A stretch of DNA of 32,000 nt, taken from Alkanindiges illinoisensis DSM 15370. Lineage in GTDB: Bacteria > Pseudomonadota > Gammaproteobacteria > Pseudomonadales > Moraxellaceae. The translations under genes were made by a program, and so were the position numbers. The notes beneath the pieces were generated by a model that saw only the letters and a program-made list of their open reading frames with translations, was not told the origin of the DNA and searched no databases. Shown piece by piece: positions 2,701 to 20,164 of this stretch (its first letter is position 1; each line of letters opens with the position of its first letter). The stretch covers positions 30,001 through 62,000 of the forward strand of contig NZ_KK211037.1 of NCBI RefSeq assembly GCF_000619845.1, read 5' to 3'.

Positions 2701-2734
2701 GTTTATGTCTAAAAATTTAGAAGGGTGCAACCGC

Positions 2735-5700
2735 ATGCCAGCCCAGCCTGTAACCGCCAGTCAAACTGGTCAGACTACTAAAGCGCCAGCCACTTCCCAT
2801 AGGTTGCTGTCGGTATGGCTAAAAACAGCCATGCTCGTCTTGCTGGGTGCAAGTTCCGGGCTGTATGCGGCACCGCCAACCATGGAGTTATTTACCGCAG
2901 GTGGCAGCACCACCGCAACTGGGCCTAGCACATCAGCACAAACCAATACCTATGCCTTTAACCCGGATAACCCATCAGGGACAACGGCATCCAGTACCTA
3001 TTATCCCAAGACAGCGGTTACCTATACCATTGAAAACCAGCAATACACTGGGACGCTGGCAAATACCGGTCTGGTGTTTGGTGGTGATGGTGACAATATC
3101 TATATTCCTTTAAGTGGACAGGGCTCACCAGCCGCTACAGATTTTACCTCCAGCCGTTTAAATGCAACACCCGGTACTGGTATTGATATCAATAATAACT
3201 ATGGCACCCGCTTCTTATTAAGGGCAGGCAGACTTGATAATAATAGTACGCATAATACAAGTACTGTAAATGGTGGCTTAGGCCATTATTTTGGCGATAT
3301 TGTGGTGGCCTGGAACCGGCCGGTTTTTAATCCTATTATTAATATTTCTGGCTTGGGCGGAACATCAAGTAATTTGGGTTTTGCAGCACAATTCCAGCTA
3401 AGCAGTCCGCCAACAGGCACAACCATTAGCCGGCTCTCTGGCCGTAATATGGGTGTGTCAGGTTTTAATATTACCAATACCGCTGCTGATATTGGTGCAA
3501 CCGCCAGTGCTGGAGGTTCTAGCGGCAGTATTCAGGTTTTAAACGATAACCCGATTACTACCTTGCGCTTTAGGGTGTATGTCCGCAGTGATAGCACTAC
3601 CAATAGTACAGACTGGGGCAGTACTACTGCCGCCGATGCCTTTGTATTTAGTGCTTCCAGTGTGGATTCTACCGTTGGTGATTTATACGTTAGCAAAACC
3701 AATAACACGACATCTGTCGTGCAGGGTGGCAGTACAACTTATACCGTACGTGTGACCAATGCCGGGCCAAGTACTATTGCAACACCTATTTTAAAAGACA
3801 GTAGTAGCACAGGATTGACTGCAACGGCAGTGGGCTGTAGTAGTGCCAGTGGTAACAAGTGTACCACCACACCCACCTTAGCCAGTTTAAACAGTGGCAT
3901 TACCATTGCCTCACTGGCCAGTGGCGAATTTTATGAAATTCTGGTGACATCCAATGTTACGGCTAGCAGTGGCAACGTCACCAATACGGCCACGGTTGAA
4001 TTACCTAACTTTGCCTCCTCAACAGGTGAAAGCTGTGTGACGTCTAATGGCATTACCCGTAGTTATAATCAAACGACAGGGACTTGTACCACTACCGATA
4101 CCGACAGCGTAACACCTGCGACCAACTTGGCTATTACCAAAACTGGAACAACTTCTGTCAAGGCAGGCCAGCCAGTTAGCTATACCATTAAGGTCTGGAA
4201 CAAGGGACCTGCAGCAGTCACTGATGCGGTAATGACCGATAATGTGCCGGCCAATATTTCCGGGCCAATTCTAACCTGTGTGGCCAGTGGCACGGCAACC
4301 TGCGGTACATTCAATACCCATGTTGCAGGCAGCAATGCCCGTAGCGCAACAGGGATTAGTCTACCTGTGGATAGCACGGGCAATACCAGTTATGTGACCT
4401 ATACGGTCACAGGTTTGGCTTATCAAACCGGAACATTTACCAATACAGCAACCATTAGCTCAGCTTCTGTGCCAGAAACTGACAGTTCAGACAATAGTGC
4501 TTCCAAAAGCACAACCATAACTGTGGATGCGCCTGTCACCAGTGGCACTGCATCCAATCAATGTAGTGCGGCACAGGCAGTGAACATTCTCACGCCAACA
4601 GCATTTACGGTATTTGACGGTGATGGCACTGGTGCCAGTTTTACCGGAACGCTGGCGGCAACAGTCAATAATACCGGAACAGTCTATGGCACCGGCACCA
4701 ATGGCGCGATTGTGTTGAGTGGCAAGTTGTCATGGTCTTATGGTTCACCCATCGTAACTGGCTCAACGCTAAGTATTAGAGTTAATGGCGTTGACTATGC
4801 TGTTCTAACCACGCCTGGAGCTTCCAGCAACGGGTCAGCCAGTTCCAATGCAGGCACTGCTACCCTAACTGCTTTAAACGGTGCTTCGGTAACGCCAGCA
4901 ACCTTAACTATTGATAATACCTATACCAGTTATACTGGCCGTGCTACCTTTACACTGACCCTGCCTACCGGAGTAACTTCCATTACCAGTGCGCAGGCGG
5001 TTTATCAAAATAATAATCCACGCACACCAACTGGCAGTACCGGTGATGACTTTGGGGTATCGCTGGATTCAGCACTGCAATGTCAAAAGCCGATTGTTAA
5101 AATTGCCAAGATTTCCAATGGCGGTGTAGGCACATTTGGTTTTACTGGCTTAAGCAACCTGAGCAATGCCAGTGGTACAGCCGTTACTACCGATAGTGTA
5201 AGCACCACCACAGCAGGCACGGCTGTCACCTCTGCGCAGGTGAACTACGCCACAGCCAACAGCACAGCAGTAGGAATCACTGAAAGTGCAGTGTCCGGTT
5301 ATAACCTGACAGCAGCCAGCTGTACTGATGCCAATAGCGCTGTTACCAGCAATACCGGGAGTTTTGGTAGCCTGTCCGGCAACACCTTAACCATTCCCGC
5401 TGCCAATGTGAAATACGGTGCTAACCTAACCTGTACTTTTAACAATACCAAACAGCGTAACCTGACCTTGCGAAAAATCTGGGTCAATGCACGCATCAAT
5501 GATGCAGCGACCATCACGGCAACAGGCCTAAACAGCTTTGTCTCCACAGCCAATACAGCCAGTGAAACCGATACTGCCAGTGCACAAGCAGTAACTGTGG
5601 GCAGTACAGTAACTCTGGGTGAAAATATTTCTACCGGCGCAGGCTATTATAATGCGGTACTAAGTTGTACACGCGATAGTGACAATGCAGCCGTTAGTAT

Positions 5701-8700
5701 AACTGGCAACAACCTGATCATGCCGGATGCTGATGTCACCTGTGGTTATACCAATAGTCGCAAGTCTGCCAGCCTGACCCTGCAAAAAATCTGGGCCAAT
5801 GCCAAGCTTAATGATGCGGCAACCATTACCGCAACTGGCCTGACCAGCTTGTCGGCTGTTGCCAATACTGCTAGCGAAACTGATGTAGCAGCAGGCCAGA
5901 CGGTCTATGCCGGTGACAGCATTACACTGGGTGAAACATTCACTACAGGCAGTATCAGCAACTACACCAGTAGTCTGGCGTGTACAGGTAATGCCACCGC
6001 GCTCACAGGCTCTACCCTGACGGTAAATCCTGCTGACACAGCCATTACCTGTAGTTATACCAATAGCCGGATTGCCCAGCAGTTAAGCCTGTCCAAGCAA
6101 TGGCAAAATGCAGTGAACGGGCATACTGCAACAGCTACCACCACAGGCGGCACCAATAATGCAACGTTTAGCTCAACCTCAACAGGTAATAACAGCACTA
6201 ACGGTAGTGCAGTCACGATGTATGCCGGAGATGTGGTTACCTTGCCAACTGAAACCCTTGGCGGTGGCGCCAGTGCTGCACAATACAACAGTACACTGGC
6301 CTGTAGCGGTGGCACCACCTTGGCCAGTGGCGCAGTGGCACGAAGCATTACCATTAGCAACAGCACCACAGCAACCGTGTGTACTTACACCAATGCGCGC
6401 AAGTCTGCCACATTAACCCTAAGTAAAATCTGGTCTGCAGGCAGTATTGCGGGCAACACAGCTACTGTTACAAGTAGTGGTTTTGGCAACAATGCAACCT
6501 CTGGAACTTCCACTGCAACCACAGCAGGTAATACCACAACCGGCACTAGCGTTACCGTATATGCCGGCGAAAGCGGTACCATTAGTGAAACTTTTGGTAC
6601 AGGCAATGCCAGTAACTACAGTGCTACGCTGGCCTGTAGTGGCAACAGCACTGCGCTCAGTGGCAATACCCTGAGCATTAATCCGGCTGACACGGCCATT
6701 AGCTGTAGCTATACCAACACTGTTGCTGGCACAGATCTTGCCATTGACAAGACTGGAACCAGTAGCGTGACGCAAGGCAACAATGTCAGCTATAGCATCA
6801 AGGTCTGGAATAAAGGGCCGGGTGCAGCCAGCAGCAGCACGTTCACTGACACCGTACCCAGTGCCCTGACCAATGTAAGCTGGAGCTGTAGTGCCAGTGG
6901 TAGCGCTGTTTGTGGTACAGCCAGTGGTAGTGGCAACAGCATTAGCGTGGCAACAGGCACACTGCCAGTTAATGCCAGCAGTACGGCACCAACCAGTGGC
7001 AGCTACCTGACCTTTACGGTAAATGGAACAGCCAGTAGCTCGGGTAATATTACCAACACGGCCACCATTGCCGTGACTTCAGGTGCTGATCCGGTCAGCA
7101 GCAATAACAGTAGCAGTGCCAGCACTACAATTAGTACGCCGGCGGCGATCATTGCCGACACACCGCAAAAAGAAGCACGGTTTGTCATTACTCCTGATCT
7201 GCCCACCATTTATCGCGGGCAGTCTGGCACCCAGCTGATTAGCATTACCAACCAGGGACCGGATGATGCCAGCGGGACTGTGGCTGTTTTCAAACCGCGA
7301 ACCCAGACTGGGGTTACGGTCACCAGCGTCAAGATTGTCAATGGTGCCAACTGTAGCCTGTCTTCCGGGGAGTGGTCATGCCCGGTGGGTAGCATTGCCA
7401 ATGGCGGCAGTTTCCAGCTGCAAGTAGGTTATGACACCACGGCATCCTCTACACTCGGTACTGCTATTCAGGCCGATATCCGGGTAGGGAGTAATGAATT
7501 CAACCCGGGTAGTGGGGTCGGTGAATCACTTTATAACGTCTGGGGAAGTACCAACCCTAATGGCAATAGCCAGTTTAATGAAATCCGTCCTAATGGTGCA
7601 TTTGCGCTGAGTTATGGCACTGCAAATGGCAGTGAAAATGTTAATCTGTCAACTGTATGGTTACCCACTCAGGTTAATCCTACAGGTGCTTATCTGACCC
7701 AGGCAGCTATTGGCGGCAATAACAGTGTCTTTGGCCCTTCAGGCACTTATAATCCAATGATTAGCCGCATCATTACCAGCTTAAACACCGACACAGCCAA
7801 ATCACAGACCCTGCTGGCACTGGATCCTGCTACTCAGGCAGGTGATAACCGCCGGGTATGGCAACTAATTACAGGTATTTATGTGCCTGCCAACAGTACA
7901 GCTTCATTATGTATCGGTAATGCTGGCAGTCAGCTGGATGACGGCGCTTACATCATGCTTAATGGTAGTCAGGTCGGGACAGATGGCAAATGGAGCTCAA
8001 GCCCGTTCATTCAAACCAGTGTGCCTTTAAATACAGGCTACAACCGGATTACTTACCGTATAGCAAATCGCAATACCCCAGGTAGCAATGAAGATTATGC
8101 GCAAGGTCTGTATGGCGAAATCGGCTTGTCAATCAATGGTGGTGCCTGTACCGCAGCTAGTCTGGATGCAACAGCACGGCTACAAATCCCAGCCAGCATC
8201 AACATTGTTGAAAAGCAGGTTGTCAACATTAGCGGGCAAGTATTTGAAGACAACAGTGGCAGCACCGCAGTCAACAGCAATGCTTACAATGGGGTTAAAA
8301 ATATCGGTGAAGCAGGAATTACAGGCAGCTCAGTCAGCATTACCAACTGTAATAGCACGACTGTTGCCACTACCAAAACTGATGCCAATGGTGAGTATAG
8401 CTTTAGCCTGTCACCTACTGATTTGCCAGCAGGCAGTTTCTGTATTGCCCAAACCAACCTAACCGGTTATTCCTCAGTTAGCGGCACGACGGGTTATAGC
8501 CGTGCCACCGACCGAATTACAGTGAGCAATACCGGTGCTAGCAGCTATAGCAACCACAATTTCGGGGATGCACGCTTAACTGCATTGCTCAGTGAAGATG
8601 GCCAGCAAACCATTACTGCCGGCGGCGTGGCTGATTATCCGCATCGCCTGACGGCTCAAAGTGTGCTGACCATCAACAGCCTGAACCAGACCCCCTCACA

Positions 8701-9325
8701 GCAACCCGCCAACAGTACCGACCAGAACTGGCAAGCCGTGGTGTACCGCGACAGCAACTGTAATGGCAAGGTAGATAGTGGAGAAAGCCTGTTTAGCCAA
8801 AGCCTGCCCCTAAGCCTGAAAAATGCGGAAGAAGCTTGTCTGGTACAGCGGGTTTATGCGCCGGCAACCGCCAGCATGGGCGCGCAGCATCTGGGTCAAT
8901 TGCAGGCCAGCTTTAGCGTGACGCTTGCTGACAATAGCCAGATTACAGGCAGCACCCTGCAACGTCAGGACACCACGTTACTGGGCAGTGCAGGTTTAAC
9001 CATGCAAAAAGGCGTGCGCAGTGTGGCCAGCTGTCCATCCACAGCCGCAGATACTGGCAGCTTTGGCGTGCAGAATCAGGTGCAAAATGGGGGGTATCTG
9101 GAATATGAAATTACCTACCGCAATAACACCACCAAAAACCTGATTGATGTCAGCATTAAGGATAGTGTGCCTACTGGAACAGTTTACAAGACTGCCTCCT
9201 GTACGAGCACGCCGTCTGGTAGCTGTAATGCCAGTCATACAAATGGCGCATTGCTGTGGCAGACTGGCGGCACCCTGTTGCCAAACCAGCAAGGGAAAGT
9301 CCGGTTTTGTGTTCAGGTACCTTAA
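2735..9325 (+). CDS. Giant (~2196 aa) secreted adhesin-like protein and candidate fibre tip. Domains in order: T/S/N/G-rich N-terminal region, several DUF11 repeats, five tandem ~100-aa Ig-like repeats, PA14-like segment, SdrD-B/CnaB-like domain, C-terminal truncated DUF11-like domain.
   Basis: Single ORF ending at the stop at 9323-9325. The ORF-track start at 2555 overlaps the upstream gene by 146 nt. In-frame ATGs lie at 2687, 2705 and 2735. I prefer 2735 because GAAGGG lies ~10 nt upstream and it falls after the upstream stop at 2698-2700; 2705 is an alternative. A signal-like segment HRLLSVWLKTAMLVLLGASSGLYA/AP follows a long n-region. Canonical DUF11 signatures are present: DLYVSKT..YTVRVTNAGP..NVTNTATVE; NLAITKTG..YTIKVWNKGPAAV..DNVP..FTNTATIS; DLAIDKTG..YSIKVWNKGPGAA..DTVP..ITNTATIA. 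SdrD-B-like segment: ISGQVFEDNSGS...TDANGEYSFSL. Confidence 0.85.
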   Translation: MPAQPVTASQTGQTTKAPATSHRLLSVWLKTAMLVLLGASSGLYAAPPTMELFTAGGSTTATGPSTSAQTNTYAFNPDNPSGTTASSTYYPKTAVTYTIENQQYTGTLANTGLVFGGDGDNIYIPLSGQGSPAATDFTSSRLNATPGTGIDINNNYGTRFLLRAGRLDNNSTHNTSTVNGGLGHYFGDIVVAWNRPVFNPIINISGLGGTSSNLGFAAQFQLSSPPTGTTISRLSGRNMGVSGFNITNTAADIGATASAGGSSGSIQVLNDNPITTLRFRVYVRSDSTTNSTDWGSTTAADAFVFSASSVDSTVGDLYVSKTNNTTSVVQGGSTTYTVRVTNAGPSTIATPILKDSSSTGLTATAVGCSSASGNKCTTTPTLASLNSGITIASLASGEFYEILVTSNVTASSGNVTNTATVELPNFASSTGESCVTSNGITRSYNQTTGTCTTTDTDSVTPATNLAITKTGTTSVKAGQPVSYTIKVWNKGPAAVTDAVMTDNVPANISGPILTCVASGTATCGTFNTHVAGSNARSATGISLPVDSTGNTSYVTYTVTGLAYQTGTFTNTATISSASVPETDSSDNSASKSTTITVDAPVTSGTASNQCSAAQAVNILTPTAFTVFDGDGTGASFTGTLAATVNNTGTVYGTGTNGAIVLSGKLSWSYGSPIVTGSTLSIRVNGVDYAVLTTPGASSNGSASSNAGTATLTALNGASVTPATLTIDNTYTSYTGRATFTLTLPTGVTSITSAQAVYQNNNPRTPTGSTGDDFGVSLDSALQCQKPIVKIAKISNGGVGTFGFTGLSNLSNASGTAVTTDSVSTTTAGTAVTSAQVNYATANSTAVGITESAVSGYNLTAASCTDANSAVTSNTGSFGSLSGNTLTIPAANVKYGANLTCTFNNTKQRNLTLRKIWVNARINDAATITATGLNSFVSTANTASETDTASAQAVTVGSTVTLGENISTGAGYYNAVLSCTRDSDNAAVSITGNNLIMPDADVTCGYTNSRKSASLTLQKIWANAKLNDAATITATGLTSLSAVANTASETDVAAGQTVYAGDSITLGETFTTGSISNYTSSLACTGNATALTGSTLTVNPADTAITCSYTNSRIAQQLSLSKQWQNAVNGHTATATTTGGTNNATFSSTSTGNNSTNGSAVTMYAGDVVTLPTETLGGGASAAQYNSTLACSGGTTLASGAVARSITISNSTTATVCTYTNARKSATLTLSKIWSAGSIAGNTATVTSSGFGNNATSGTSTATTAGNTTTGTSVTVYAGESGTISETFGTGNASNYSATLACSGNSTALSGNTLSINPADTAISCSYTNTVAGTDLAIDKTGTSSVTQGNNVSYSIKVWNKGPGAASSSTFTDTVPSALTNVSWSCSASGSAVCGTASGSGNSISVATGTLPVNASSTAPTSGSYLTFTVNGTASSSGNITNTATIAVTSGADPVSSNNSSSASTTISTPAAIIADTPQKEARFVITPDLPTIYRGQSGTQLISITNQGPDDASGTVAVFKPRTQTGVTVTSVKIVNGANCSLSSGEWSCPVGSIANGGSFQLQVGYDTTASSTLGTAIQADIRVGSNEFNPGSGVGESLYNVWGSTNPNGNSQFNEIRPNGAFALSYGTANGSENVNLSTVWLPTQVNPTGAYLTQAAIGGNNSVFGPSGTYNPMISRIITSLNTDTAKSQTLLALDPATQAGDNRRVWQLITGIYVPANSTASLCIGNAGSQLDDGAYIMLNGSQVGTDGKWSSSPFIQTSVPLNTGYNRITYRIANRNTPGSNEDYAQGLYGEIGLSINGGACTAASLDATARLQIPASINIVEKQVVNISGQVFEDNSGSTAVNSNAYNGVKNIGEAGITGSSVSITNCNSTTVATTKTDANGEYSFSLSPTDLPAGSFCIAQTNLTGYSSVSGTTGYSRATDRITVSNTGASSYSNHNFGDARLTALLSEDGQQTITAGGVADYPHRLTAQSVLTINSLNQTPSQQPANSTDQNWQAVVYRDSNCNGKVDSGESLFSQSLPLSLKNAEEACLVQRVYAPATASMGAQHLGQLQASFSVTLADNSQITGSTLQRQDTTLLGSAGLTMQKGVRSVASCPSTAADTGSFGVQNQVQNGGYLEYEITYRNNTTKNLIDVSIKDSVPTGTVYKTASCTSTPSGSCNASHTNGALLWQTGGTLLPNQQGKVRFCVQVP
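5090..6720 (+). repeat. Five tandem coding repeats (about 101-122 aa each) inside the giant adhesin gene. The repeat is visible at protein level; the DNA copies are diverged.
   Basis: In-frame repeat starts at nt 5090 (PIVKIAKIS), 5456 (RNLTLRKIW), 5759 (RKSASLTLQKIW), 6068 (RIAQQLSLSKQW) and 6398 (RKSATLTLSKIW). The repeats share the pattern L(T/S)L.K.W ... GD..TL.E ... Y...L.C ... C.YTN, and the first copy is more divergent (CTFNNTK). Confidence 0.85.
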
Positions 9326-12926: not shown

Positions 12927-12953
12927 TGGAAGCCGGTCTAGTACCGGCTTCCA
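12927..12953 (+). terminator. Intercistronic stem-loop (perfect 11-bp stem, 5-nt loop) between the 900-aa subunit gene and the barrel-fusion gene. Candidate attenuator or mRNA 3'-end stabiliser.
   Basis: TGGAAGCCGGT-CTAGT-ACCGGCTTCCA lies 45 nt after the stop at 12882. The downstream sequence TCCGAATTAAAACTTTATTC has only a weak T-run. Confidence 0.4.
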
Positions 12954-12986
12954 TCCGAATTAAAACTTTATTCAAGGTATATTGCT

Positions 12987-15900
12987 GTGTTGCGACATAC
13001 GAAAAATAACGCATACCAAGCGACATTCTTACTTTCTACACTTGCAGCGTCTATTGTGATGGCTCAGCAGGGTTACGCGGTAACACCCGTAATTCCAGTG
13101 GCTGGTGTGGCAATCAAGAATACAGCATACGCCACCTATCTTTCGCCAGAAGGCCAAACCCGTAATACCGAATCCAATACCGTTCAGGTTGAAGTAGCAG
13201 CCCTGTACGCCATTTCGCTCACCCAGCCTGCAACCCAGGAAATAGAAGCCGGTGCCCGCGTGGTGTGGCTCAACACCCTGACCAATACCAGCAATACCCA
13301 GGCCAGCATTAATATTGAAAAACTGGTAGCCAGTGGCTTAAGCAATATCAAGATTTATGTTGATAAAAACAAGAATGGTGAGTTTGACGCCAGTGATGAA
13401 GTCCTGAGCGGTTCCATTGTACTGGATCGCCTACAATCCATTAATCTGTGGGTGGTGGCAACAGCATCAGCTAACCTGCAGGATAAGCAGCAATTAAACC
13501 TGCCCATCAAGGCTGTTGTGGTTGAAGACCCGAATGTCACTGCCACAGCAACCGACAGTCTGGTGGCTTACCTGCCAGAACTTACCGCCAGCAAAACGGT
13601 TGATCAGGAAACCTTTACGCCCGGTAGTGGCAAAAGTTATGACCTGAACTACACCCTGACCCTGGAAAACAAAGGCTCACAGGCCATTCGTCCAACCCGT
13701 GTATTTATTGACGGACAGGCGCAGGACATGGTGGTGATGATAGATTCACTGCCGGCCAACACCATTTATAAAAGTGCCCAAAGCAATAATCCCAATGCGC
13801 TGATCCTGTTTAAAACCGGTGACAACAGCTATACCCGCCAGCAGCCGGCTGACCTCAAAAGCATTAATGATGTCGTGGTGGCCTATCCTGCCATTGAAGC
13901 GCACAGCGTTGAACGGGTGCAGCTTAGTGTTAGCATGAACAACAATATTGCCAGCACCACTTTAAATAACCAGTTTGCGGTCAAATACCAACTGGCCACC
14001 GGTGAAAAAACCACCCTGTCTAATATTGCCAAAACCGTGGTATCCGGCAAGTCTGCCATTAGTAATAACACCGGCAATTACAACCAGATTCTGGCTACTG
14101 GTAGCCTAAACAAGCCCTTGTATATTTCTGCCGACAGTGCGGTGTGCAATGCCAGCCGCGCTATCAGCGATCAGGTAAAAATCCGGGTTAAATCCACAGT
14201 TACCGGAGATGTGGTTGAAGTGATTGGTGTGGAAACTGCACCCAACAGCGGCCTGTTTCACTACCAGCTGGCCACGGTTGAAAGCACCACGGCCAATCCG
14301 AATGACCAAATTCTGCAAACAGTCAAGCGGGACAAGGTGCTGGTTAGTCTGGTGAACTGTCTGGATGCCAGCGGCAACCCGACAGCAACCATTAATGATG
14401 TCAACACCAATGTGCTGATTGACCCATACGGTATTGTATTTGATGCCAAGACTGGCAAGCCGGTTGTTGGTGCCAAAGTGACCCTGATGGATGCCAGTGG
14501 CAATCCGGTAGGCAACAATGTGGCCTTTAATGTGAATGCTGAAACTGGCGAGCTGATTTCCATTCCTGCCACGCAGCTCACCAATGAACTGGGTGAGTTT
14601 ATTTATCCGCAGGTGATTGCTGGTAACTATAGCCTGCAAGTGGACACGTCCACCATTCCCGGTTCAACCAAGTACACCTTTGTCAGTGACAAAACCGTTT
14701 ATCCCAGTTTTTCTAGTGATAAAGCCGTTCATCCGCAGTGGTCGTATGGCGGCAACTTTGCCCTGAATAATGGCGACCCGGCGTTAAATATTGATATTCC
14801 AGTTGATCCGGTACTGTCCACGCCAACCTCACCGCTGTTTGTGAAGAAAACCGCCACTCACACCACTGCCGAGCTGGGTGATTTTGAAGAATACACCGTG
14901 ACCGTGGCCAACCGTGGCGAAACGGTAGCGCAGGAGGTGTCCATTAAGGATACCCTGCCACGCGGCTTTATTTATGTGGCGGGCACGGCGCGGGTTAATG
15001 GCGTTAAGGTGAGTGATCCGCTGGGTGGCAAAGGCCCGTATCTGACCCTGGGCTTGGGTAATTTGGATGCCAATAAAGAAGTTAAAATCCAGTACCGTGT
15101 GCAGATTGGTCCCAATGCCTTGAATGGCGATGGTATTAATCGCGTACGCGCGCGCGATGCCAGCGGCGTGGAATCCAACGAAGCTTCGGCCAAAATTGAA
15201 GTCACGCCCGGCGTACTGATGTCGGATGCATTTATTGTGGGCAAGGTCTTTATGGACTGTAACCGCAATGGCATGCAGGATGTGGGTGAGCGCGGTGTGC
15301 CCGGTATCCGCCTGTTCATGGAAGATGGCAGCTATGTCATCACTGACCGTGAAGGCAAATATGACTTTTATGGCGTGAGCGCCAAAACCCATGTGTTAAA
15401 GCTGGATCGCAGCACCCTGCCGGGCAATGCTGAAATGGTATTGCTGGGCAACCGTAATGCCGGTGATGCCGGTAGCCGTTTTGTTGACCTCAAGCGTGGC
15501 GAACTGCACCGTGCCGATTTTGCCATTGCGGATGGCGCAGGCACCTGTACCCAGCCGCTGGTTGAACAGGTTGACAAGCGCAAGGAAAAGATTGAAGAAC
15601 AAAACCTCAATCTGGAACAGGTACTGCGTGCCGACCTGTCATTAGACCCGCTGCGTTATAGCGTGGGCGATGTGCGCAGCCAGCCAGCCAGTGGCTGTAT
15701 CAGTGCGCAGGGCGTTACTGCCAACTGTAATATTGAGCTGTCCAAAGACCAGATTAAAGAGCTGCGTGCGGCACAAATTGAACCCGTCAAGGCACCAGTA
15801 CTGGTTGATCTTGAGCAGGCACTGGCTGAAGCCAATAGCAATCAACTGGCCATTTTAAACTTAAAAGACGGGCAAACCCTGCCGTATGCACAAACCACCG

Positions 15901-18900
15901 TTCAGGTGAAAGGCGTGGCTGGTGCAATGATTGAGCTATGGGTCAATGGCCAGCACATTGATGACAAGCGCATTGGCAAAAAAGCCATTCTGCCGGATTT
16001 CCAGATTGCCGGTTTTGACTATATTGGTGTAGACCTCAAGCCGGGCAGTAACCAGATTGAAGTGCGCCAGCTGGACAGCATGGGTAACCTGCGTGAACAG
16101 CAAAAGATTCAGGTGATTGCTCCGGATCAAATGAGCAAGCTGGCCTTGAGTGCACCCAGGCAGGAAGCACAGGCTAACGGTTCTGATGTGTTCAGTGCTG
16201 TGCTGAAAATTGTCGATCACAATGGCACCATGGTGGCCAGCCGTACCCCGATTACGCTGGAAAGCACCATTGGCAAGGTTGAGATCAAAGACCTGGATCC
16301 TGCTCAGCCCGGCATTCAGGTGTTTGTGGAAGGCGGCACGCTGCTGGTGCCAATTACTGCACCCAGTGAGGCGGGCGAAGGCACCTTAAACGTCACCAGT
16401 GGCATTTATAATGCCAACCTGCCAGTGCGCTTCCTGCCGGCACTGCGTCCAATGATTGCCGCCGGTATTGTCGAAGGGGCGATTTCCTTCCAGAAATTTG
16501 ATCCCAAGCAACTGAGTCAGGTGAACCGCAACGATGGCTTTGAAGAAGAGCTCAACGACATTGCATCCAGTAATGGCGGCAAAACCAACACCACGGGTCG
16601 TGCGGCATTATTTTTAAAAGGTAAGGTAAAAGGCGAATACCTGCTGACGCTGGCTTATGACTCCGACAAGGACAAAGACCAGCGCCTGTTCCGTGATATC
16701 CGTCCTGATGAATATTATCCGGTATATGGTGATGCCGCCGCCAAGGGCTTTGATGCGCAATCCACCAGCAAACTATATGTGCGGGTCGACAAGGGCCGTT
16801 CCTATGTTATGTATGGTGATTACGTTACCCGCACCGACAATGATGACGGCTTGTCTTTAGGCCAGTACAACCGCTCTTTGACTGGCGCGCGCACCAGCAT
16901 TGAAACCGATCGCACCAAAATCACTGGCTTTGTGGCGCAAACCAATGCCACCCAGATTACCAACGAACAGCGTGGCTTGGGCATTACCGGCCCGTATTCA
17001 CTGGGTCAGGTCAGCAGCGATGATGTGCTGCGCAATAGTGAAAAAGTGGAAGTGATTGTGCGTGACCGCAATAATCCGGGTCTGATCATTTCCCAGCGTA
17101 CACTGGCGCGGTTTACCGACTATGAAGTGGATACCTTCAGCAACAGTATTTATTTAAAAGAAGCCGTTTCCAGCGTTGATAGCAACTTAAATCCGGTTTA
17201 CCTGCGTATTACTGTAGAAGCCGATCAGGGCGGTGAAGAATATACCGTGGGCGGGGTGTCCGGCTCGGTAAAAGTCACCAGCAAGGTGCAAGTGGGGGGG
17301 TCTTACGTCAAGAGTGATGACCCGCTCACTGATGAGCAACTGGCCAGTGTCAATACCGTTATCAAGCTGAATGACCGTGCTAAGCTGGTGGCTGAAGTGG
17401 CCCGTAGTGAAAACACCATTGATCCAGCCAACAGCTTATCAAACATTAATGCCAGCACATCGGCCACGGGTGAGCAGTCCGGCACTGCTGGCCGCATTGA
17501 GCTGGATTACAGCATCAACAATATTGAATTGCGTGCTTACCACAATCAGGCCGACAGCGGTTTTTACAACACGGCTTCACCAATTACTGCCGGACGCAAG
17601 GAAAGTGGTATTAAGGCACAGGCACGGGTGGAAAAACTGGGCTTAACCCGTTTTGAAGCCATTCGTACCGAAGACCAGGCCAATCAGGGCGTGCGTCAGG
17701 GCATTTCCGCCAGTGTGGAACGTGCCTTGAACCGCCTGATGTCACTGGAACTAGGTGTGCGCTATTACGAAGAAACCGTGAGCGCTGCTAGTGCCACCAG
17801 CCAGCAGGTAACCCCGTATGATGGCACCACAGTACGCGCCAAGCTAAACAGTGCGCTGCCCTGGGAAGGCTCCAATGCCTTTATTGAATACGAGCAGGAT
17901 ATCAGTGATGCGGATCGCCGGATTTTTGCGCTGGGTGGCAATTACCAGATTAGTCCAAAAGCCCGCCTGTATGCCCGTCAGGAAATTATTTCCAGCATCA
18001 ATGGCCTGTATGAACTAAACGATACCCAGCGCCGCAACACCACCGTGGTGGGGATTGACAGCAATTACAGTCAGGATGGTTCGGTGTTTAGTGAATACCG
18101 GGTACGTGATGGCATCAGTGCGCGTGAAGCCGAAGCGGCGATTGGAACCCGCAACCGCTGGCAAGTGGCCAAAGGAATTTATGCCAACACCAGTCTGGAA
18201 AAAGTCAAGGCGATTGCTGGTACTGACAACCAGTCACTGGACAGCACGGCAGCCTCGGTTGGTCTGGAATACCTGACCAATCCGGACTGGAAAGGGGTAG
18301 CGCGTTTGGAAATGCGCTGGGCTGATCAGTCTGACACCTTGCTCAATACACTGGGTCTGGCTTACAAGCTCACCGATGATGTCACCCTGTTGACCAAAAA
18401 CGTGTTTAGCCAGATTGACAACAAGGGCGATACCACCGGCGATCGTGTAATTGACCGCTTTCAGGTTGGTGCAGCCTACCGTGACTTTGACCAGAACCGC
18501 TTTGATGCGCTGACCAAGCTGGAATACCGTTATGAAAATGACGAAACCAACCTGTCCAGCCCATATCTGCGCAATGTGTATATTTTGTCCAACCATGCCA
18601 ACTTTCACCCGAATCGCAAAACCACGCTGTCTGGTCAGTATGCAGTGAAGTATGTCAAGGCAGACTTTGAAGGCATCAAGTCCACAGGTGCTACCCAGTT
18701 GCTGAGTGGCCGTGCCATGTATGACATCAGCGAGCGCTGGGATGCAGGCATTAATGCCGGCCTGCTGTGGAGCGATGCCAGCGAAGGCCGTCGCCTGCTG
18801 CTGGGCGGTGAAGTCGGCTATTTGTTGGCCGCCAATTTATGGCTGTCTGCCGGTTATAACTTCTCCGGCTACAAGGACAAGGATCTGGCAGATAGCAGCA

Positions 18901-19013
18901 CCACTATTCAGGGGCCTTATTTACGCTTCCGCTTCAAGTTTGATGAAGACCTGCTGAACTTTGATCACAGCAATGTCAACAAATCGCAGGAGCCAGACGA
19001 TGCAGGCCATTAA
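12987..19013 (+). CDS. 2008-aa outer-membrane protein and candidate fibre anchor or pore. Domains in order: signal peptide, orphan DUF11 strand, Ig-like/DUF11/CnaB-like/SdrD-B/Big-like domains, ~830-aa C-terminal beta-barrel-like region.
   Basis: GTG start at 12987 with AAGG 9 nt upstream; TTG at 12990 is an alternative. Signal peptide MLRHTKNNAYQATFLLSTLAASIVMAQQGYA/VTP. DUF11 unit LFVKKTA..YTVTVANRGETVAQEVSIKDTLPRGF..KIQYRVQIG..SNEASAKIEVT. SdrD-B-like GKVFMDCNRNGMQDVGERGVPGIRLFMEDGSYVITDREGKYDFYGV. Prealbumin/CnaB-like DPYGIVFDAKTGKPVVGAKVTLMDASGNPV. Big_1-like ANGSDVFSAVLKIVDHNGTMV. From ~nt 16440 the sequence shows alternating amphipathic strand pairs with aromatic and G/N/D/S turns (e.g. 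RIELDYSINNIELRAYHN, RFQVGAAYRDF..LTKLEYRYEN, LLLGGEVGYLLAANLWLSAGYNF). This region ends in the beta-signal-like GPYLRFRFKF at 18915-18941. Confidence 0.9.
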   Translation: MLRHTKNNAYQATFLLSTLAASIVMAQQGYAVTPVIPVAGVAIKNTAYATYLSPEGQTRNTESNTVQVEVAALYAISLTQPATQEIEAGARVVWLNTLTNTSNTQASINIEKLVASGLSNIKIYVDKNKNGEFDASDEVLSGSIVLDRLQSINLWVVATASANLQDKQQLNLPIKAVVVEDPNVTATATDSLVAYLPELTASKTVDQETFTPGSGKSYDLNYTLTLENKGSQAIRPTRVFIDGQAQDMVVMIDSLPANTIYKSAQSNNPNALILFKTGDNSYTRQQPADLKSINDVVVAYPAIEAHSVERVQLSVSMNNNIASTTLNNQFAVKYQLATGEKTTLSNIAKTVVSGKSAISNNTGNYNQILATGSLNKPLYISADSAVCNASRAISDQVKIRVKSTVTGDVVEVIGVETAPNSGLFHYQLATVESTTANPNDQILQTVKRDKVLVSLVNCLDASGNPTATINDVNTNVLIDPYGIVFDAKTGKPVVGAKVTLMDASGNPVGNNVAFNVNAETGELISIPATQLTNELGEFIYPQVIAGNYSLQVDTSTIPGSTKYTFVSDKTVYPSFSSDKAVHPQWSYGGNFALNNGDPALNIDIPVDPVLSTPTSPLFVKKTATHTTAELGDFEEYTVTVANRGETVAQEVSIKDTLPRGFIYVAGTARVNGVKVSDPLGGKGPYLTLGLGNLDANKEVKIQYRVQIGPNALNGDGINRVRARDASGVESNEASAKIEVTPGVLMSDAFIVGKVFMDCNRNGMQDVGERGVPGIRLFMEDGSYVITDREGKYDFYGVSAKTHVLKLDRSTLPGNAEMVLLGNRNAGDAGSRFVDLKRGELHRADFAIADGAGTCTQPLVEQVDKRKEKIEEQNLNLEQVLRADLSLDPLRYSVGDVRSQPASGCISAQGVTANCNIELSKDQIKELRAAQIEPVKAPVLVDLEQALAEANSNQLAILNLKDGQTLPYAQTTVQVKGVAGAMIELWVNGQHIDDKRIGKKAILPDFQIAGFDYIGVDLKPGSNQIEVRQLDSMGNLREQQKIQVIAPDQMSKLALSAPRQEAQANGSDVFSAVLKIVDHNGTMVASRTPITLESTIGKVEIKDLDPAQPGIQVFVEGGTLLVPITAPSEAGEGTLNVTSGIYNANLPVRFLPALRPMIAAGIVEGAISFQKFDPKQLSQVNRNDGFEEELNDIASSNGGKTNTTGRAALFLKGKVKGEYLLTLAYDSDKDKDQRLFRDIRPDEYYPVYGDAAAKGFDAQSTSKLYVRVDKGRSYVMYGDYVTRTDNDDGLSLGQYNRSLTGARTSIETDRTKITGFVAQTNATQITNEQRGLGITGPYSLGQVSSDDVLRNSEKVEVIVRDRNNPGLIISQRTLARFTDYEVDTFSNSIYLKEAVSSVDSNLNPVYLRITVEADQGGEEYTVGGVSGSVKVTSKVQVGGSYVKSDDPLTDEQLASVNTVIKLNDRAKLVAEVARSENTIDPANSLSNINASTSATGEQSGTAGRIELDYSINNIELRAYHNQADSGFYNTASPITAGRKESGIKAQARVEKLGLTRFEAIRTEDQANQGVRQGISASVERALNRLMSLELGVRYYEETVSAASATSQQVTPYDGTTVRAKLNSALPWEGSNAFIEYEQDISDADRRIFALGGNYQISPKARLYARQEIISSINGLYELNDTQRRNTTVVGIDSNYSQDGSVFSEYRVRDGISAREAEAAIGTRNRWQVAKGIYANTSLEKVKAIAGTDNQSLDSTAASVGLEYLTNPDWKGVARLEMRWADQSDTLLNTLGLAYKLTDDVTLLTKNVFSQIDNKGDTTGDRVIDRFQVGAAYRDFDQNRFDALTKLEYRYENDETNLSSPYLRNVYILSNHANFHPNRKTTLSGQYAVKYVKADFEGIKSTGATQLLSGRAMYDISERWDAGINAGLLWSDASEGRRLLLGGEVGYLLAANLWLSAGYNFSGYKDKDLADSSTTIQGPYLRFRFKFDEDLLNFDHSNVNKSQEPDDAGH

Positions 19014-20148
19014 GTTAAAACTGGCGCTGGCAGCCTGTCTGGTCAGCGGTTTGGCATTGGCCATGCCTGCCATGAGCCAGCCTGTAGCCAATCAGTCTGA
19101 TAACCCGCTGGAACAAAATAGCGTGGCGGCGTTACAACAGCGGGTTCAGCCATTTTTGCAAAGTAATGATGTGCTAACTCAGTACCATGCCCAAAAAGCG
19201 CAAATGTGGCTGACTTATGCGGCCAACCAACACAGTGAGGGCAGCTCCACGGCGGCTGAACAGCAGGCACAGGCGCAAGCCTTACAACTCATTGAACAGT
19301 TGGAACAACAGCAGCCTGTTTCTACTACCACGCCAGTGATTCAGGCTTCCAAAGTCATGCGCCGCGATTTATGGGTCAATGCCGAGTTGCTTAAACAGCA
19401 AGCAGGTTTTGACTGTGCAGCCACTGAAATTGCACAGGCGGAAGTCATGCTGGTGTGGGCTGCTGCCGAACATTGTGAGCTGGGCTGGCGACATTCGCGG
19501 GAGCTGTTTGCGGCGGCTGAGCGCTTGATTGACAAGGCCAATTATCAGGCAGCCAATTGCCATGCTACGGCGCAATCACTGGCCGCCCAGCCCTTACCAG
19601 CATGGAACAAGGCTAATTATCCCAGTCTTGAGCAGTTAAATGGCCCTGAAAAAGGCTGTCATGGTGTGGTTGGCCCATGGCCATTGGTGAGTGCCACAAC
19701 AGTTGCGCCAGTAGTTTCCCAGCCTGTTAATCCAGTAGCTGAACCAGCAACGCAGGACGTTCTACCCAACGTGGTACATTTTGCGCTGGATCAGGCCAGC
19801 TTGTCGCAAGCCTCACAGCAGGTGCTGGGTGATATTGCCACCGTGCTGGGCAAAAATAGCAATTATTCACTGACCCTGTATGGCTATACCGATGCCCGCG
19901 GCAGTCAGGCTTATAATCTGGACTTAAGTCAGCGCCGTGCCAAAACCGTTGAAAACTTTTTAATTCAGCAGGGCGTGGATGCCAGCCGGATTGCCACGGT
20001 GGCTGCCGGTGAGCAGCAATTGATCAGCGATCCAAAAGCGGTTGTGGGTCATGCCTTAAGTCGCCGGGTAGTGCTGGTGTATGCCAGCCCGGATGGACAG
20101 GAAATTAAAACCACATCCCAGACCAGTGACTTACAGCCTGAACATTAA
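19000..20148 (+). CDS. Periplasmic OmpA-C-like (peptidoglycan-binding) protein with a Cys-containing helical N-terminal domain.
   Basis: ATG at 19000 with AGGAG 7 nt upstream; the ORF-track TTG at 18961 was rejected. The start overlaps the 3' end of the upstream gene by 14 nt. Signal peptide MQAIKLKLALAACLVSGLALAMPAMS/QP. The C-terminal OmpA-like motif is VHFALDQASL...LYGYTDARGSQAYNLDLSQRRAKTVENFLIQQGVDASRI..AGEQQ...RRVVLV. Confidence 0.85.
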   Translation: MQAIKLKLALAACLVSGLALAMPAMSQPVANQSDNPLEQNSVAALQQRVQPFLQSNDVLTQYHAQKAQMWLTYAANQHSEGSSTAAEQQAQAQALQLIEQLEQQQPVSTTTPVIQASKVMRRDLWVNAELLKQQAGFDCAATEIAQAEVMLVWAAAEHCELGWRHSRELFAAAERLIDKANYQAANCHATAQSLAAQPLPAWNKANYPSLEQLNGPEKGCHGVVGPWPLVSATTVAPVVSQPVNPVAEPATQDVLPNVVHFALDQASLSQASQQVLGDIATVLGKNSNYSLTLYGYTDARGSQAYNLDLSQRRAKTVENFLIQQGVDASRIATVAAGEQQLISDPKAVVGHALSRRVVLVYASPDGQEIKTTSQTSDLQPEH

Positions 20149-20164
20149 TTCAGGCTGTTTTTTT
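20133..20164 (+). terminator. Rho-independent terminator of the adhesin/fibre cluster.
   Basis: ACAGCCTGAA-CATTAA-TTCAGGCTGT followed by a T7 run. The TAA stop of the OmpA-like gene lies in the loop. Confidence 0.85.

Follow-up and report, generated by a model that had tools for sequence, protein, structure and literature searches.

A 32,000-nucleotide (nt) stretch of the Alkanindiges illinoisensis DSM 15370 genome (contig NZ_KK211037.1, positions 30,001 to 62,000; here referred to as the window) contains a single row of six genes, P1 to P6, all on the same strand (Table 1). The subject of this analysis is P5, a GTG-initiated open reading frame (ORF) whose product has, in order, a signal peptide, a 40-residue N-terminal motif, ~1100 amino acids (aa) of immunoglobulin (Ig)-like domains, and a C-terminal region of ~830 aa. 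We consider it likely that P5 is the anchor and terminator at the base of a surface fiber.

A first-pass annotation had described P5 as a signal peptide followed by surface-type domains and a C-terminal barrel, and the ORF, the Pfam matches, and an AlphaFold2 model agree on this layout. Its unit coordinates were also accurate: the SdrD_B unit, placed at nt ~15235 to 15420, matches Pfam at nt 15243 to 15401, and the C-terminal region, placed at nt ~16440 to 18941, spans nt 16455 to 18941. The N terminus (MLRHTKNNAYQATFLLSTLAASIVMAQQGYA followed by VTP) resembles a Sec signal peptide by inspection. The Ig-like array comprises two CLIPPER/DUF11-type domains, one prealbumin-like domain, one SdrD_B domain, and two Ig domains; the DUF11, prealbumin-like, SdrD_B, and Big_1-like units that had been proposed all have Pfam matches, two of them (prealbumin-like and Ig-like) below threshold. 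The first CLIPPER-like domain, D2, is apparently intact, with a completing segment (LNNQFAVKY...SNIAKTVV) that comes next by eye. The prealbumin-like domain matches PF13620 with an E value of 1.7e-5, below the curated cutoff, and sits at an equivalent place in P5 homologs. The helix-prone linker (~880 to 975), which two Ig domains separate from the barrel, is the point at which the gene is split in a short class of the family; in locus L002 this is the boundary between the adhesin gene and the barrel gene. Residues 1 to 112 of the AlphaFold2 model, whose modeled segment begins at P5 residue 1040, form a beta-sandwich with a predicted local distance difference test (pLDDT) score of ~85 to 90. 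An Ig-like Pfam match at residues 1052 to 1138 (nt 16141 to 16400) has an E value of 0.0026, below cutoff, but homologs give Big_1 or Invasin_D3 matches at this position, and the family profile finds an invasin in the PDB (E 0.027). The signal-like sequence GPYLRFRFKF, with which P5 had been said to end, is indeed the last strand, but a 23-residue tail lies beyond it. Nor is P5 a chimera, as it had been called: it is an ordinary member of its family, in which ~2000 aa in this domain order is the commonest form.

The N-terminal motif of P5 finds its counterpart at the other end of the neighboring proteins. In P4, P2, and P1, the DUF11 match of the C-terminal domain breaks off at position 76 to 85 of the 114 in the profile (position 85 for the P4 domain alone), and the protein ends there. 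When the N-terminal motif (the donor) is appended to these truncated domains (the acceptors), the DUF11 match reaches position 95 to 111, with a gain of 1 to 4.4 bits. We searched for both elements with hidden Markov models (HMMs) in the ORFs of 87 fetched loci and the window, a set that included 86 full-length barrel ORFs. The donor HMM gave 183 matches, of which 143 lay within the first 120 residues of an ORF; among the 40 internal matches, 38 began directly after an acceptor-type match, where intact domains have their last strands. The 137 unique N-terminal donors share the consensus ag..I.NiA.AsY.d..g...tvtSN.V.v.V, in which the Asn, the Ala, and the Ser-Asn pair are each conserved at 99%. 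The motif is thereby predicted to correspond to the last two CLIPPER strands, including the isopeptide Asn. That P5 starts with the same orphan strand as the shaft subunits, as first proposed, holds for the homology (P5 residues 40 to 176 align with P4 residues 38 to 178 at 30% identity, E 1e-10 by BLASTP) but not for the strand, which is actually a two-strand CLIPPER segment.

The chemistry expected of such a domain can be read from P5 itself. Residues 618 to 732 exceed the gathering cutoff of PF01345 (45.5 bits against 24.6) and score 55.4 bits with TIGR01451. In a phmmer alignment with PDB entry 9IFR, the Lys of VKK, the Asp of IKDTLP, and the Asn of GINRV in this domain fall on K715, D748, and N806, the isopeptide residues of 9IFR (PMC12617251). 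The aligned Asn lies in an I-N-x-V motif whose form matches the donor motif I-N-x-[AV], and because of this alignment we equate the donor Asn with the isopeptide Asn. All 115 large-subunit C-terminal acceptors have the Asp; alignment places a first-strand Lys in 100 of them, and a pattern search recovers a first-strand Lys motif in a further 13. This acceptor Lys is provisionally taken as the isopeptide Lys, an assignment made by motif similarity only; for the Lys comparison, internal CLIPPER domains fail to align to the first columns of the acceptor HMM, and terminal acceptors carry an extra loop. Since acceptors keep the Lys and Asp and donors bring the Asn strands, the triad would be complete only between subunits. 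Because the donor would be the missing end of an isopeptide domain, the linkage is, on balance, probably covalent, a Lys-Asn bond between subunits that goes beyond strand exchange alone. A phmmer search of the PDB with an acceptor-plus-donor chimera returned nothing useful. The extra loop has the conserved form D.N.(C/L)DG..(D/E)G.Y in the terminal acceptors of P4 (~797 to 812), of P1 (~790 to 805), and at the C terminus of L007:7294-9882, from a distant locus; it looks like a calcium-binding loop. A similar YxDxNxNGxxD loop is found in the first Ig domain of P1, P4, and P5.

The distribution of the two elements over the gene row suggests a division of labor (Table 1). As the first-pass annotation had held, P5 differs from the shaft subunits in having no acceptor: the acceptor HMM matches the C termini of P1, P2, P3, and P4 and finds no C-terminal acceptor domain in P5. 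P1 and P4, which carry both elements, are paralogs (31% identity over their full length, E 1e-89). P2 contains five DUF11 stretches together with SpaA_4 and SdrD_B by Pfam. P3 covers positions 12 to 87 of the 114 in the DUF11 profile and is without the catalytic Asp; of 62 P3-like proteins, 54 have Leu in that column and none has Asp. Because the catalytic Asp is replaced, the P3-like class would be a non-ligating binder of donor strands, making P3 a candidate periplasmic chaperone or cap for them. The distant locus L007 keeps a P3 homolog (L007:6778-7266) immediately before its shaft gene. P6 has a helical N-terminal domain and an OmpA-type peptidoglycan-binding domain (Pfam OmpA at 274 to 362, E 2.8e-21), and an OmpA gene is a conserved neighbor in most loci. 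Across the census, an N-terminal donor is present on 68 of the 86 full-length barrel ORFs. Loci with a donor-bearing barrel have up to 5 same-strand neighbors that end in an acceptor, usually including one with both donor and acceptor, and most barrel genes without a donor have neither donor nor acceptor neighbors. Because the donor on the barrel co-occurs with acceptor-ending neighbors, this pattern fits a chain-terminating anchor. The earlier proposal that P5 both terminates the chain and fixes it in the outer membrane (OM) is thus supported in silico by its lone donor, its barrel, and the census.

Table 1. Genes, split-domain elements, and P5 domains in the window
Feature	Residues	Position (nt)	Strand	Remarks
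P1		4..2700	+	898 aa; donor yes, acceptor yes; putative second shaft subunit
P1 donor motif		124-246	+	donor HMM match
P1 C-terminal acceptor		2344-2685	+	acceptor HMM match
P2		ORF 2555..9325, probable start ATG 2705	+	2256 aa (ORF); donor no, acceptor yes; tip-type subunit, putative distal tip adhesin
P2 C-terminal acceptor		8990-9319	+	acceptor HMM 78.4 bits; no donor match in P2
P3		9639..10145	+	168 aa; small secreted stand-alone acceptor-like CLIPPER; donor no, acceptor yes but no Asp; chaperone or cap candidate
P4		10180..12882	+	900 aa; donor yes, acceptor yes; putative shaft subunit
P4 donor motif		10285-10407	+	donor HMM 59.9 bits
P4 truncated CLIPPER acceptor		12547-12879	+	acceptor HMM 94.1 bits
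P5		12987..19013	+	2008 aa; barrel protein; donor yes, acceptor no (barrel instead); putative terminator and anchor
P5 signal peptide	1-31	12987..13079	+	basic n-region, hydrophobic core, GYA/V site, by inspection
P5 N-terminal donor motif	36-78	13092..13220	+	AGVAIKNTAYATY...ESNTVQVEV; donor HMM 48.8 bits
P5 Ig-like domain D1		13221..13526	+	homologous to first domain of P4 and P1
P5 CLIPPER-like D2	~183-355	13533..14051	+	acceptor-type HMM at 183-319, 34.3 bits
P5 prealbumin/CarboxypepD_reg-like	~478-610	14418..14816	+	Pfam PF13620 at 482-555
P5 intact CLIPPER (DUF11)	618-732	14838..15182	+	Pfam E 1e-11; Lys/Asp/Asn triad
P5 SdrD_B-like	~745-870	15219..15596	+	Pfam PF17210 at 753-805, E 6e-11, nt 15243-15401
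P5 linker	~871-975	15597..15911	+	helix-prone stretches; conserved Cys-x(n)-Cys loop
P5 Ig-like D7 and D8	~976-1045 and ~1050-1151	15912..16439	+	D8 Big_1/invasin-like; directly before barrel
P5 predicted giant OM beta-barrel	1157-1985	16455..18941	+	AlphaFold2, Foldseek, covariation
RLFRDI.PDE.YPVYGD...GFDAQST	~1234-1262	16686..16772	+	most conserved motif of the family
Predicted inserted beta-sandwich	1321-1413	16947..17225	+	covariation; AlphaFold2 of segment
P5 C-terminal tail	1986-2008	18942..19010	+	predicted periplasmic; KFDE.L[FL] turn; conserved columns F946, D947, E948
P6		ORF 18961..20148, probable start 19000	+	395 aa (ORF); OmpA-like

To the C-terminal region of P5 (residues 1040 to 2008), AlphaFold2 with a 73-sequence alignment assigned an all-beta structure consisting of one Ig domain followed by 44 strands (mean pLDDT 79.7; predicted template modeling score, pTM, 0.73). 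The best Foldseek matches in the PDB were SlpA (30 strands), SprA (36), MtrB (26), the FimD usher (24), LptD (26), and TonB-dependent transporters, all with a probability of 1.0 yet with template modeling (TM) scores of ≤0.25 and identities of ≤11%. As modeled, the barrel has a clear fold class but no solved relative. PDB searches with the P5 sequence and the family profile matched a CLIPPER domain (9IFR), a weak invasin Ig domain, and, for the barrel itself, only a weak porin (E 0.006); these sequence and profile searches found none of usher, LptD, BamA, or intimin, which had been named as possible relatives. Near the C terminus, there is a sub-threshold Pfam match to the OM-barrel family DUF2490, and the barrel region contains no Cys residues.

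Residue covariation supplies a second view of the barrel wall. We applied mean-field direct coupling analysis to 311 sequences (effective number, Meff, 249), taking non-adjacent strand pairs as the background (1.07 ± 0.30). Antiparallel hairpin ladders along strands 14 to 44 were mostly well above this background, at roughly 2 to 4, and those along strands 1 to 7 were present but weaker. The top two non-adjacent ladders joined strand 7 (model residues 271 to 280) with strand 14 (380 to 390) and strand 9 with strand 13, scoring 4.05 and 3.88, respectively. P5 residues 1321 to 1413 thus appear to be a small beta-sandwich inserted between neighboring wall strands. Folded alone, this segment reached a pLDDT of 92. 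It was considered as an usher plug and rejected: Foldseek returned no usher plug, and its best matches were phage tail-tube Ig-like domains (TM 0.45 to 0.47, E 2e-3), so the usher resemblance of the insert is topological only. From the AlphaFold2 secondary structure and the covariation, we estimate a wall of 7 + 31 = 38 strands, or 36 to 38 if strands are split or merged. The C-terminal ~830 aa of P5 are therefore most likely a single giant OM barrel of about 36 to 38 strands, far larger than the barrels of autotransporters (12 strands) or ushers (24 strands), as the first reading of the region had anticipated, and it would rank among the largest single-chain membrane barrels predicted. The RLFRDI...YPVYGD motif contains the invariant columns R197, D198, Y205, G209, D210, and A218 and falls in a segment modeled with a pLDDT of <50; the N-terminal part of the barrel that bears it is the portion common to distant relatives annotated as TonB-dependent receptors.

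The orientation of the barrel follows from fusions found in homologs. P0197 and P0206 continue directly from the barrel into a fused OmpA peptidoglycan-binding domain, which places the barrel C terminus in the periplasm, and P0146 (2393 aa) has a TPR domain; with either a TPR or an OmpA domain fused behind the barrel, the periplasmic partner evidently varies between lineages. Given an even number of strands, the first strand must also begin in the periplasm. In the AlphaFold2 model, only 5 residues separate D8 from that strand. With both barrel ends periplasmic, the P5 stalk, built from domain types characteristic of surface adhesins, would have to traverse the OM inside its own barrel, and a lumen of 36 to 38 strands would, by its geometry, measure several nanometers, enough for folded Ig domains. 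Whether the barrel also serves as the conduit for the other subunits we judge to be evenly balanced.

The domain map, the fold class of the barrel, its inserted domain, the donor/acceptor homology with its conservation, the gene-neighborhood pattern, and the OmpA fusion are all computational results. From these features, we infer the membrane location and surface exposure of P5, covalent bond formation, the order of assembly, and use of the conduit as parts of the following model. P5 would be the OM base subunit of a multi-subunit surface fiber, and its donor would slot into the truncated CLIPPER domain at the C terminus of a shaft subunit (P4 or P1). Once the donor has completed the fold, a Lys-Asn isopeptide bond would probably arise spontaneously between the chains. 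The shaft subunits P1 and P4, having both donor and acceptor, would chain head to tail, with P2, which has an acceptor only, occupying the distal end. Because it has a donor and no acceptor, P5 would end the chain at the cell and fix the fiber in the OM, and the OmpA-like P6 would tie the P5 barrel to the peptidoglycan. The result would be a fiber built head to tail without sortase and probably covalent. Its chain might be joined in the periplasm and then threaded out, or it might be grown outward from an exposed P5 donor. We propose, tentatively and with slightly less than even confidence, that this is a new class of Gram-negative pilus, defined by split-CLIPPER polymerization without a sortase, usher, or PapD-type chaperone, by a Lys-Asn lock, by P5 as terminator, anchor, and export pore, and by P3 as chaperone.

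Other readings of the locus differ on what P5 is joined to, how, and what its barrel does. P5 could be a self-contained giant autotransporter-type adhesin, its N-terminal motif making no link between subunits and P1, P2, and P4 being independent secreted or surface proteins. The sequence of signal peptide, passenger, and C-terminal barrel is indeed the autotransporter order, and the short, split class of the family manages with a single giant adhesin and a barrel and has no donor or acceptor. However, each of P1, P2, P3, and P4 closes with a CLIPPER domain cut at position ~85 of 114, right before the stop codon, and incapable of folding by itself; matches to the missing segment are confined to N termini (143 of 183 matches) or to places right after intact internal domains (38 of 40); a donor on the barrel correlates with acceptor-ending neighbors; and Pfam finds no PF03797 autotransporter domain in P5. 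We therefore regard a self-contained adhesin as improbable. Far less credible still is the idea that the C-terminal region transports nutrients, as a TonB-dependent-type or other transporter extended at its N terminus by CarboxypepD_reg, despite the annotation of distant relatives as 'TonB-dependent receptor' or 'carboxypeptidase-like regulatory domain-containing protein' and the presence of TonB-dependent transporters among the Foldseek matches. Neither P5 nor the annotated 'receptor' matches Plug (PF07715) or TonB_dep_Rec (PF00593) in Pfam or NCBIfam, the strand count is far above 22, the TM score is at most 0.25, and the annotated 'receptor' adjoins a DUF11 protein. The identity of P5 as a TonB-dependent receptor was rejected on the missing Plug and TonB_dep_Rec matches.

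Two further alternatives accept the fiber and dispute a part of it. Strand complementation might be non-covalent, as in chaperone-usher or type V pili, with the Lys, Asp, and Asn serving fold stability or persisting as relics. Isopeptide bonds are missing in some DUF11 domains (PMC12617251), the acceptor Lys is displaced by the inserted loop, and P3-like proteins keep the fold without the Asp. Yet the triad is near-invariant exactly where it can be completed only in trans (Asn 99%, Asp 115 of 115, Lys about 113 of 115), and the Asp is selectively lost in the P3 class only, as would follow from a need for catalysis in the large subunits; we find a purely non-covalent fiber unlikely. The barrel, in turn, might be an anchor and nothing else, the other subunits being exported by another route (e.g., type II secretion) or assembled on the surface after release. 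Translocation through the barrel is a prediction, its lumen may be filled by the inserted beta-sandwich and Ig domains, and the inserted domain is unlike an usher plug. We nevertheless hold this to be doubtful, since neither the window operon nor the conserved core of distant loci contains another secretion component, a barrel of ~38 strands far exceeds what an anchor needs, and the periplasmic termini force the P5 stalk through the barrel in any case. Against the proposed covalent fiber on a giant barrel stand the following observations: the score gained by appending the donor is small (1 to 4.4 bits); the ~16-residue D.N.DG..[DE]G.Y loop sets the acceptor Lys further from the core than in an intact CLIPPER domain; closure of the barrel, the first strand against the last, gave no covariation signal above background; the wall strands exceed shuffles in beta-moment by only a modest margin (1.03 versus 0.73); and the short barrel class does without a donor motif, its adhesin being the product of another gene, so the donor is not essential to the barrel family overall.

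The proposed P5 system resembles several known systems and is a member of neither the chaperone-usher pili, the autotransporters, the sortase pili, nor SpyTag/SpyCatcher. In chaperone-usher pili, as here at the level of sequence, the N-terminal extension of the proximal subunit completes the incomplete Ig-like fold of the distal one. Those pili (FimD/PapC, with the terminators FimI/PapH) likewise have an acceptor-only tip and a terminator that, being unable to accept a strand, ends growth at the cell, and they too rely on a large OM barrel with a beta-sandwich between early wall strands. However, the proteins of the P5 operon include no usher (PF00577) or PapD-like chaperone by Pfam or NCBIfam, and the P5 barrel has ~38 strands against 24, with FimD a generic barrel match (TM 0.20 to 0.24). 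Terminator, anchor, and barrel are also a single polypeptide in P5, the donated segment is two strands, and the completed fold is a CnaA-type isopeptide domain whose link is probably covalent. The type V pili of Bacteroidota (FimA/Mfa1, with the anchors FimB/Mfa2) are strand-exchange polymers in which the basal anchor also terminates elongation, but their lipoprotein precursors, protease activation, donated C-terminal strand, and lipoprotein anchor are not seen in the P5 system. With classical (type Va) autotransporters, P5 shares a signal peptide, a surface passenger, and a C-terminal OM barrel in one chain, as well as a passenger that must pass its own barrel, and the P5 family also has a split, two-gene version. 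Unlike them, P5 has a barrel ~3 times larger with no PF03797 match in Pfam or NCBIfam, two Ig domains between linker and barrel, and an Ig-like passenger that links to further subunits. Compared with the inverse (type Ve) autotransporters intimin and invasin, the order in P5 is reversed and there is no PF11924 match; only the barrel-adjacent Ig domain of P5 resembles invasin/Big_1.

On the side of isopeptide chemistry, sortase pili (SpaA, RrgB) and CnaA/CnaB domains offer Ig-like fibers with tip, shaft, and base and Lys-Asn isopeptide bonds. In contrast to these, the C termini of P1, P2, and P4 lack LPXTG, Pfam found no sortase among the 15 largest ORFs scanned, the proposed bond would be autocatalytic within a two-chain fold, and the fiber would be anchored in the OM rather than in peptidoglycan. 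P5 residues 618 to 732 are a bona fide CLIPPER domain like 9IFR, with the triad aligned. SpyTag/SpyCatcher is likewise an isopeptide domain split into a Lys/catalytic part and a short strand with the partner residue, which reconstitute and ligate spontaneously, but it is man-made, of CnaB type (CnaB2), and forms a Lys-Asp bond, whereas the P5 system is predicted to be a natural CnaA-type Lys-Asn split used for polymerization. Donor-strand complementation without a chaperone-usher machine is known from archaeal threads (Saci_0406) and Tat-fimbriae (tafi). The threads have inter-subunit isopeptide bonds from the N-terminal amine to Asn between subunits n and n+2 (PMC9715654), and tafi have been proposed to end in a membrane-anchored terminator, TafF (PMC11821415); both differ from the P5 system in having other folds, no OM, and no barrel. 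Strand numbers comparable to that of P5 occur in SprA, the translocon of the type 9 secretion system (T9SS; 36 strands), which passes folded proteins, and in SlpA (30 strands), although neither has sequence similarity to P5, and SprA reaches a Foldseek TM of only 0.18 to 0.20 at 6% identity. Unnamed OM-barrel families of 38 and 40 strands were predicted by Solan et al. in 2021, with no function or gene context (PMC8346858); the 38-strand family may be that of P5, as its strand count is compatible.

The barrel family is large. A search with P5 residues 1150 to 2008 returned more than 1000 proteins, each at ~98% query coverage and 37 to 56% identity, and an exhaustive HMMER search across 1.84 billion cluster representatives puts the family at no fewer than 3242 clusters (50% identity) with E ≤1e-3, 1358 of them reaching E ≤1e-30. 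The family occurs in at least 590 species genomes; a look-up of the exact P5 sequence in a collection of contigs gave no match. Its commonest representatives are ~1950 to 2400 aa long, with the barrel at the C terminus, and barrel ORFs measure ~2000 to 2040 aa in most Acinetobacter and Alkanindiges loci and ~1700 to 1800 aa in Psychrobacter. A class of ~1450 aa has a signal peptide, the N-terminal motif directly after it, CLIPPER, SdrD_B, linker, Ig, and barrel, and a class of ~1060 aa is without everything preceding the Cys-loop and Ig. Upstream of the latter lies a gene for a 2654- to 2767-aa adhesin ending in CLIPPER and SdrD_B domains homologous to P5 residues 618 to 870. Because this adhesin carries the equivalents of that part of P5, one module appears to be split at times over two genes. 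The distant, different-phylum-like locus L007 encodes a P3-like protein (162 aa), a shaft protein (862 aa), a barrel protein (1426 aa), and a tip-like protein (863 aa), and its donor sequence is near-identical to that of P4. In public databases, the proteins are annotated as 'DUF11 domain-containing protein' and 'OmpA family protein', and distant relatives as 'TonB-dependent receptor' or 'carboxypeptidase-like regulatory domain-containing protein'; full-text searches of open-access papers found no description of the P5 system.

Three loci in the family stand out for their surroundings or annotation. A complete-looking copy of the system, with a 2008-aa barrel protein, an OmpA protein, and DUF11 proteins, lies beside transposases at positions 8243 to 20608 of L088, the mobilizable 302-kb plasmid p4 of Acinetobacter haemolyticus (CP085288.1); its upstream shaft region is broken up into several short coding sequences. 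In a Psychrobacter-like genome (L005:8448-13735 and L006; protein P0014), the barrel gene begins abruptly within the SdrD_B unit; a resolvase and an IS605 OrfB/TnpB gene lie immediately upstream, no donor or acceptor genes are nearby, and the barrel gene appears to have been truncated by an insertion element. On a Pseudochrobactrum plasmid (L089:5134-8865), a 1243-aa 'TonB-dependent receptor' without a Pfam match follows a DUF11 protein; only the first ~255 barrel-region residues are in common with the family, and the protein probably belongs to the same superfamily as a distant member with the wrong annotation.

If the proposed model of P5 as the base of a covalent fiber is true, the system would be a fifth route to surface fibers in diderms, beside the chaperone-usher, type IV, type V, and curli routes. 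It would unite donor-strand completion, spontaneous isopeptide ligation, and autotransporter-like anchoring, which are known only separately, and would give a function to a ~38-strand barrel family found in, among others, Acinetobacter, Moraxella, and Psychrobacter. It would also provide a natural, evolved set of Tag/Catcher pairs for protein engineering. The size of the P5 barrel raises the question of how the barrel assembly machinery (BAM) assembles such a barrel.

The row of genes ends after P6 at a strong terminator-like hairpin with a T-run (20133 to 20158), beyond which lie unrelated housekeeping genes (LysR, IlvD/Edd, and PEP carboxylase). The probable P6 start overlaps the P5 stop by 14 nt. 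Between P4 and P5, the 108-nt spacer folds with a z-score of -4.4 and contains a perfect 12-bp stem-loop, GGAAGCCGGTCTAGTACCGGCTTCC, at 12927 to 12955 with no T-run after it, which could act as an mRNA stabilizer or as a partial attenuator fixing the ratio of shaft to anchor. A palindromic terminator-like hairpin follows P2 (9407 to 9435), and a promoter-like site precedes P3 (9496 to 9524), such that P3-P4-P5-P6 may be transcribed apart from P1-P2. In the distant locus L007, the P3, shaft, and barrel genes are likewise adjacent, and the OmpA gene is absent there. The listed P2 ORF begins within P1, and its likely ATG start lies 5 nt past the P1 stop; from that ATG, the signal peptide would run for ~35 residues before its hydrophobic core, an extension of the kind seen in very large exported proteins.

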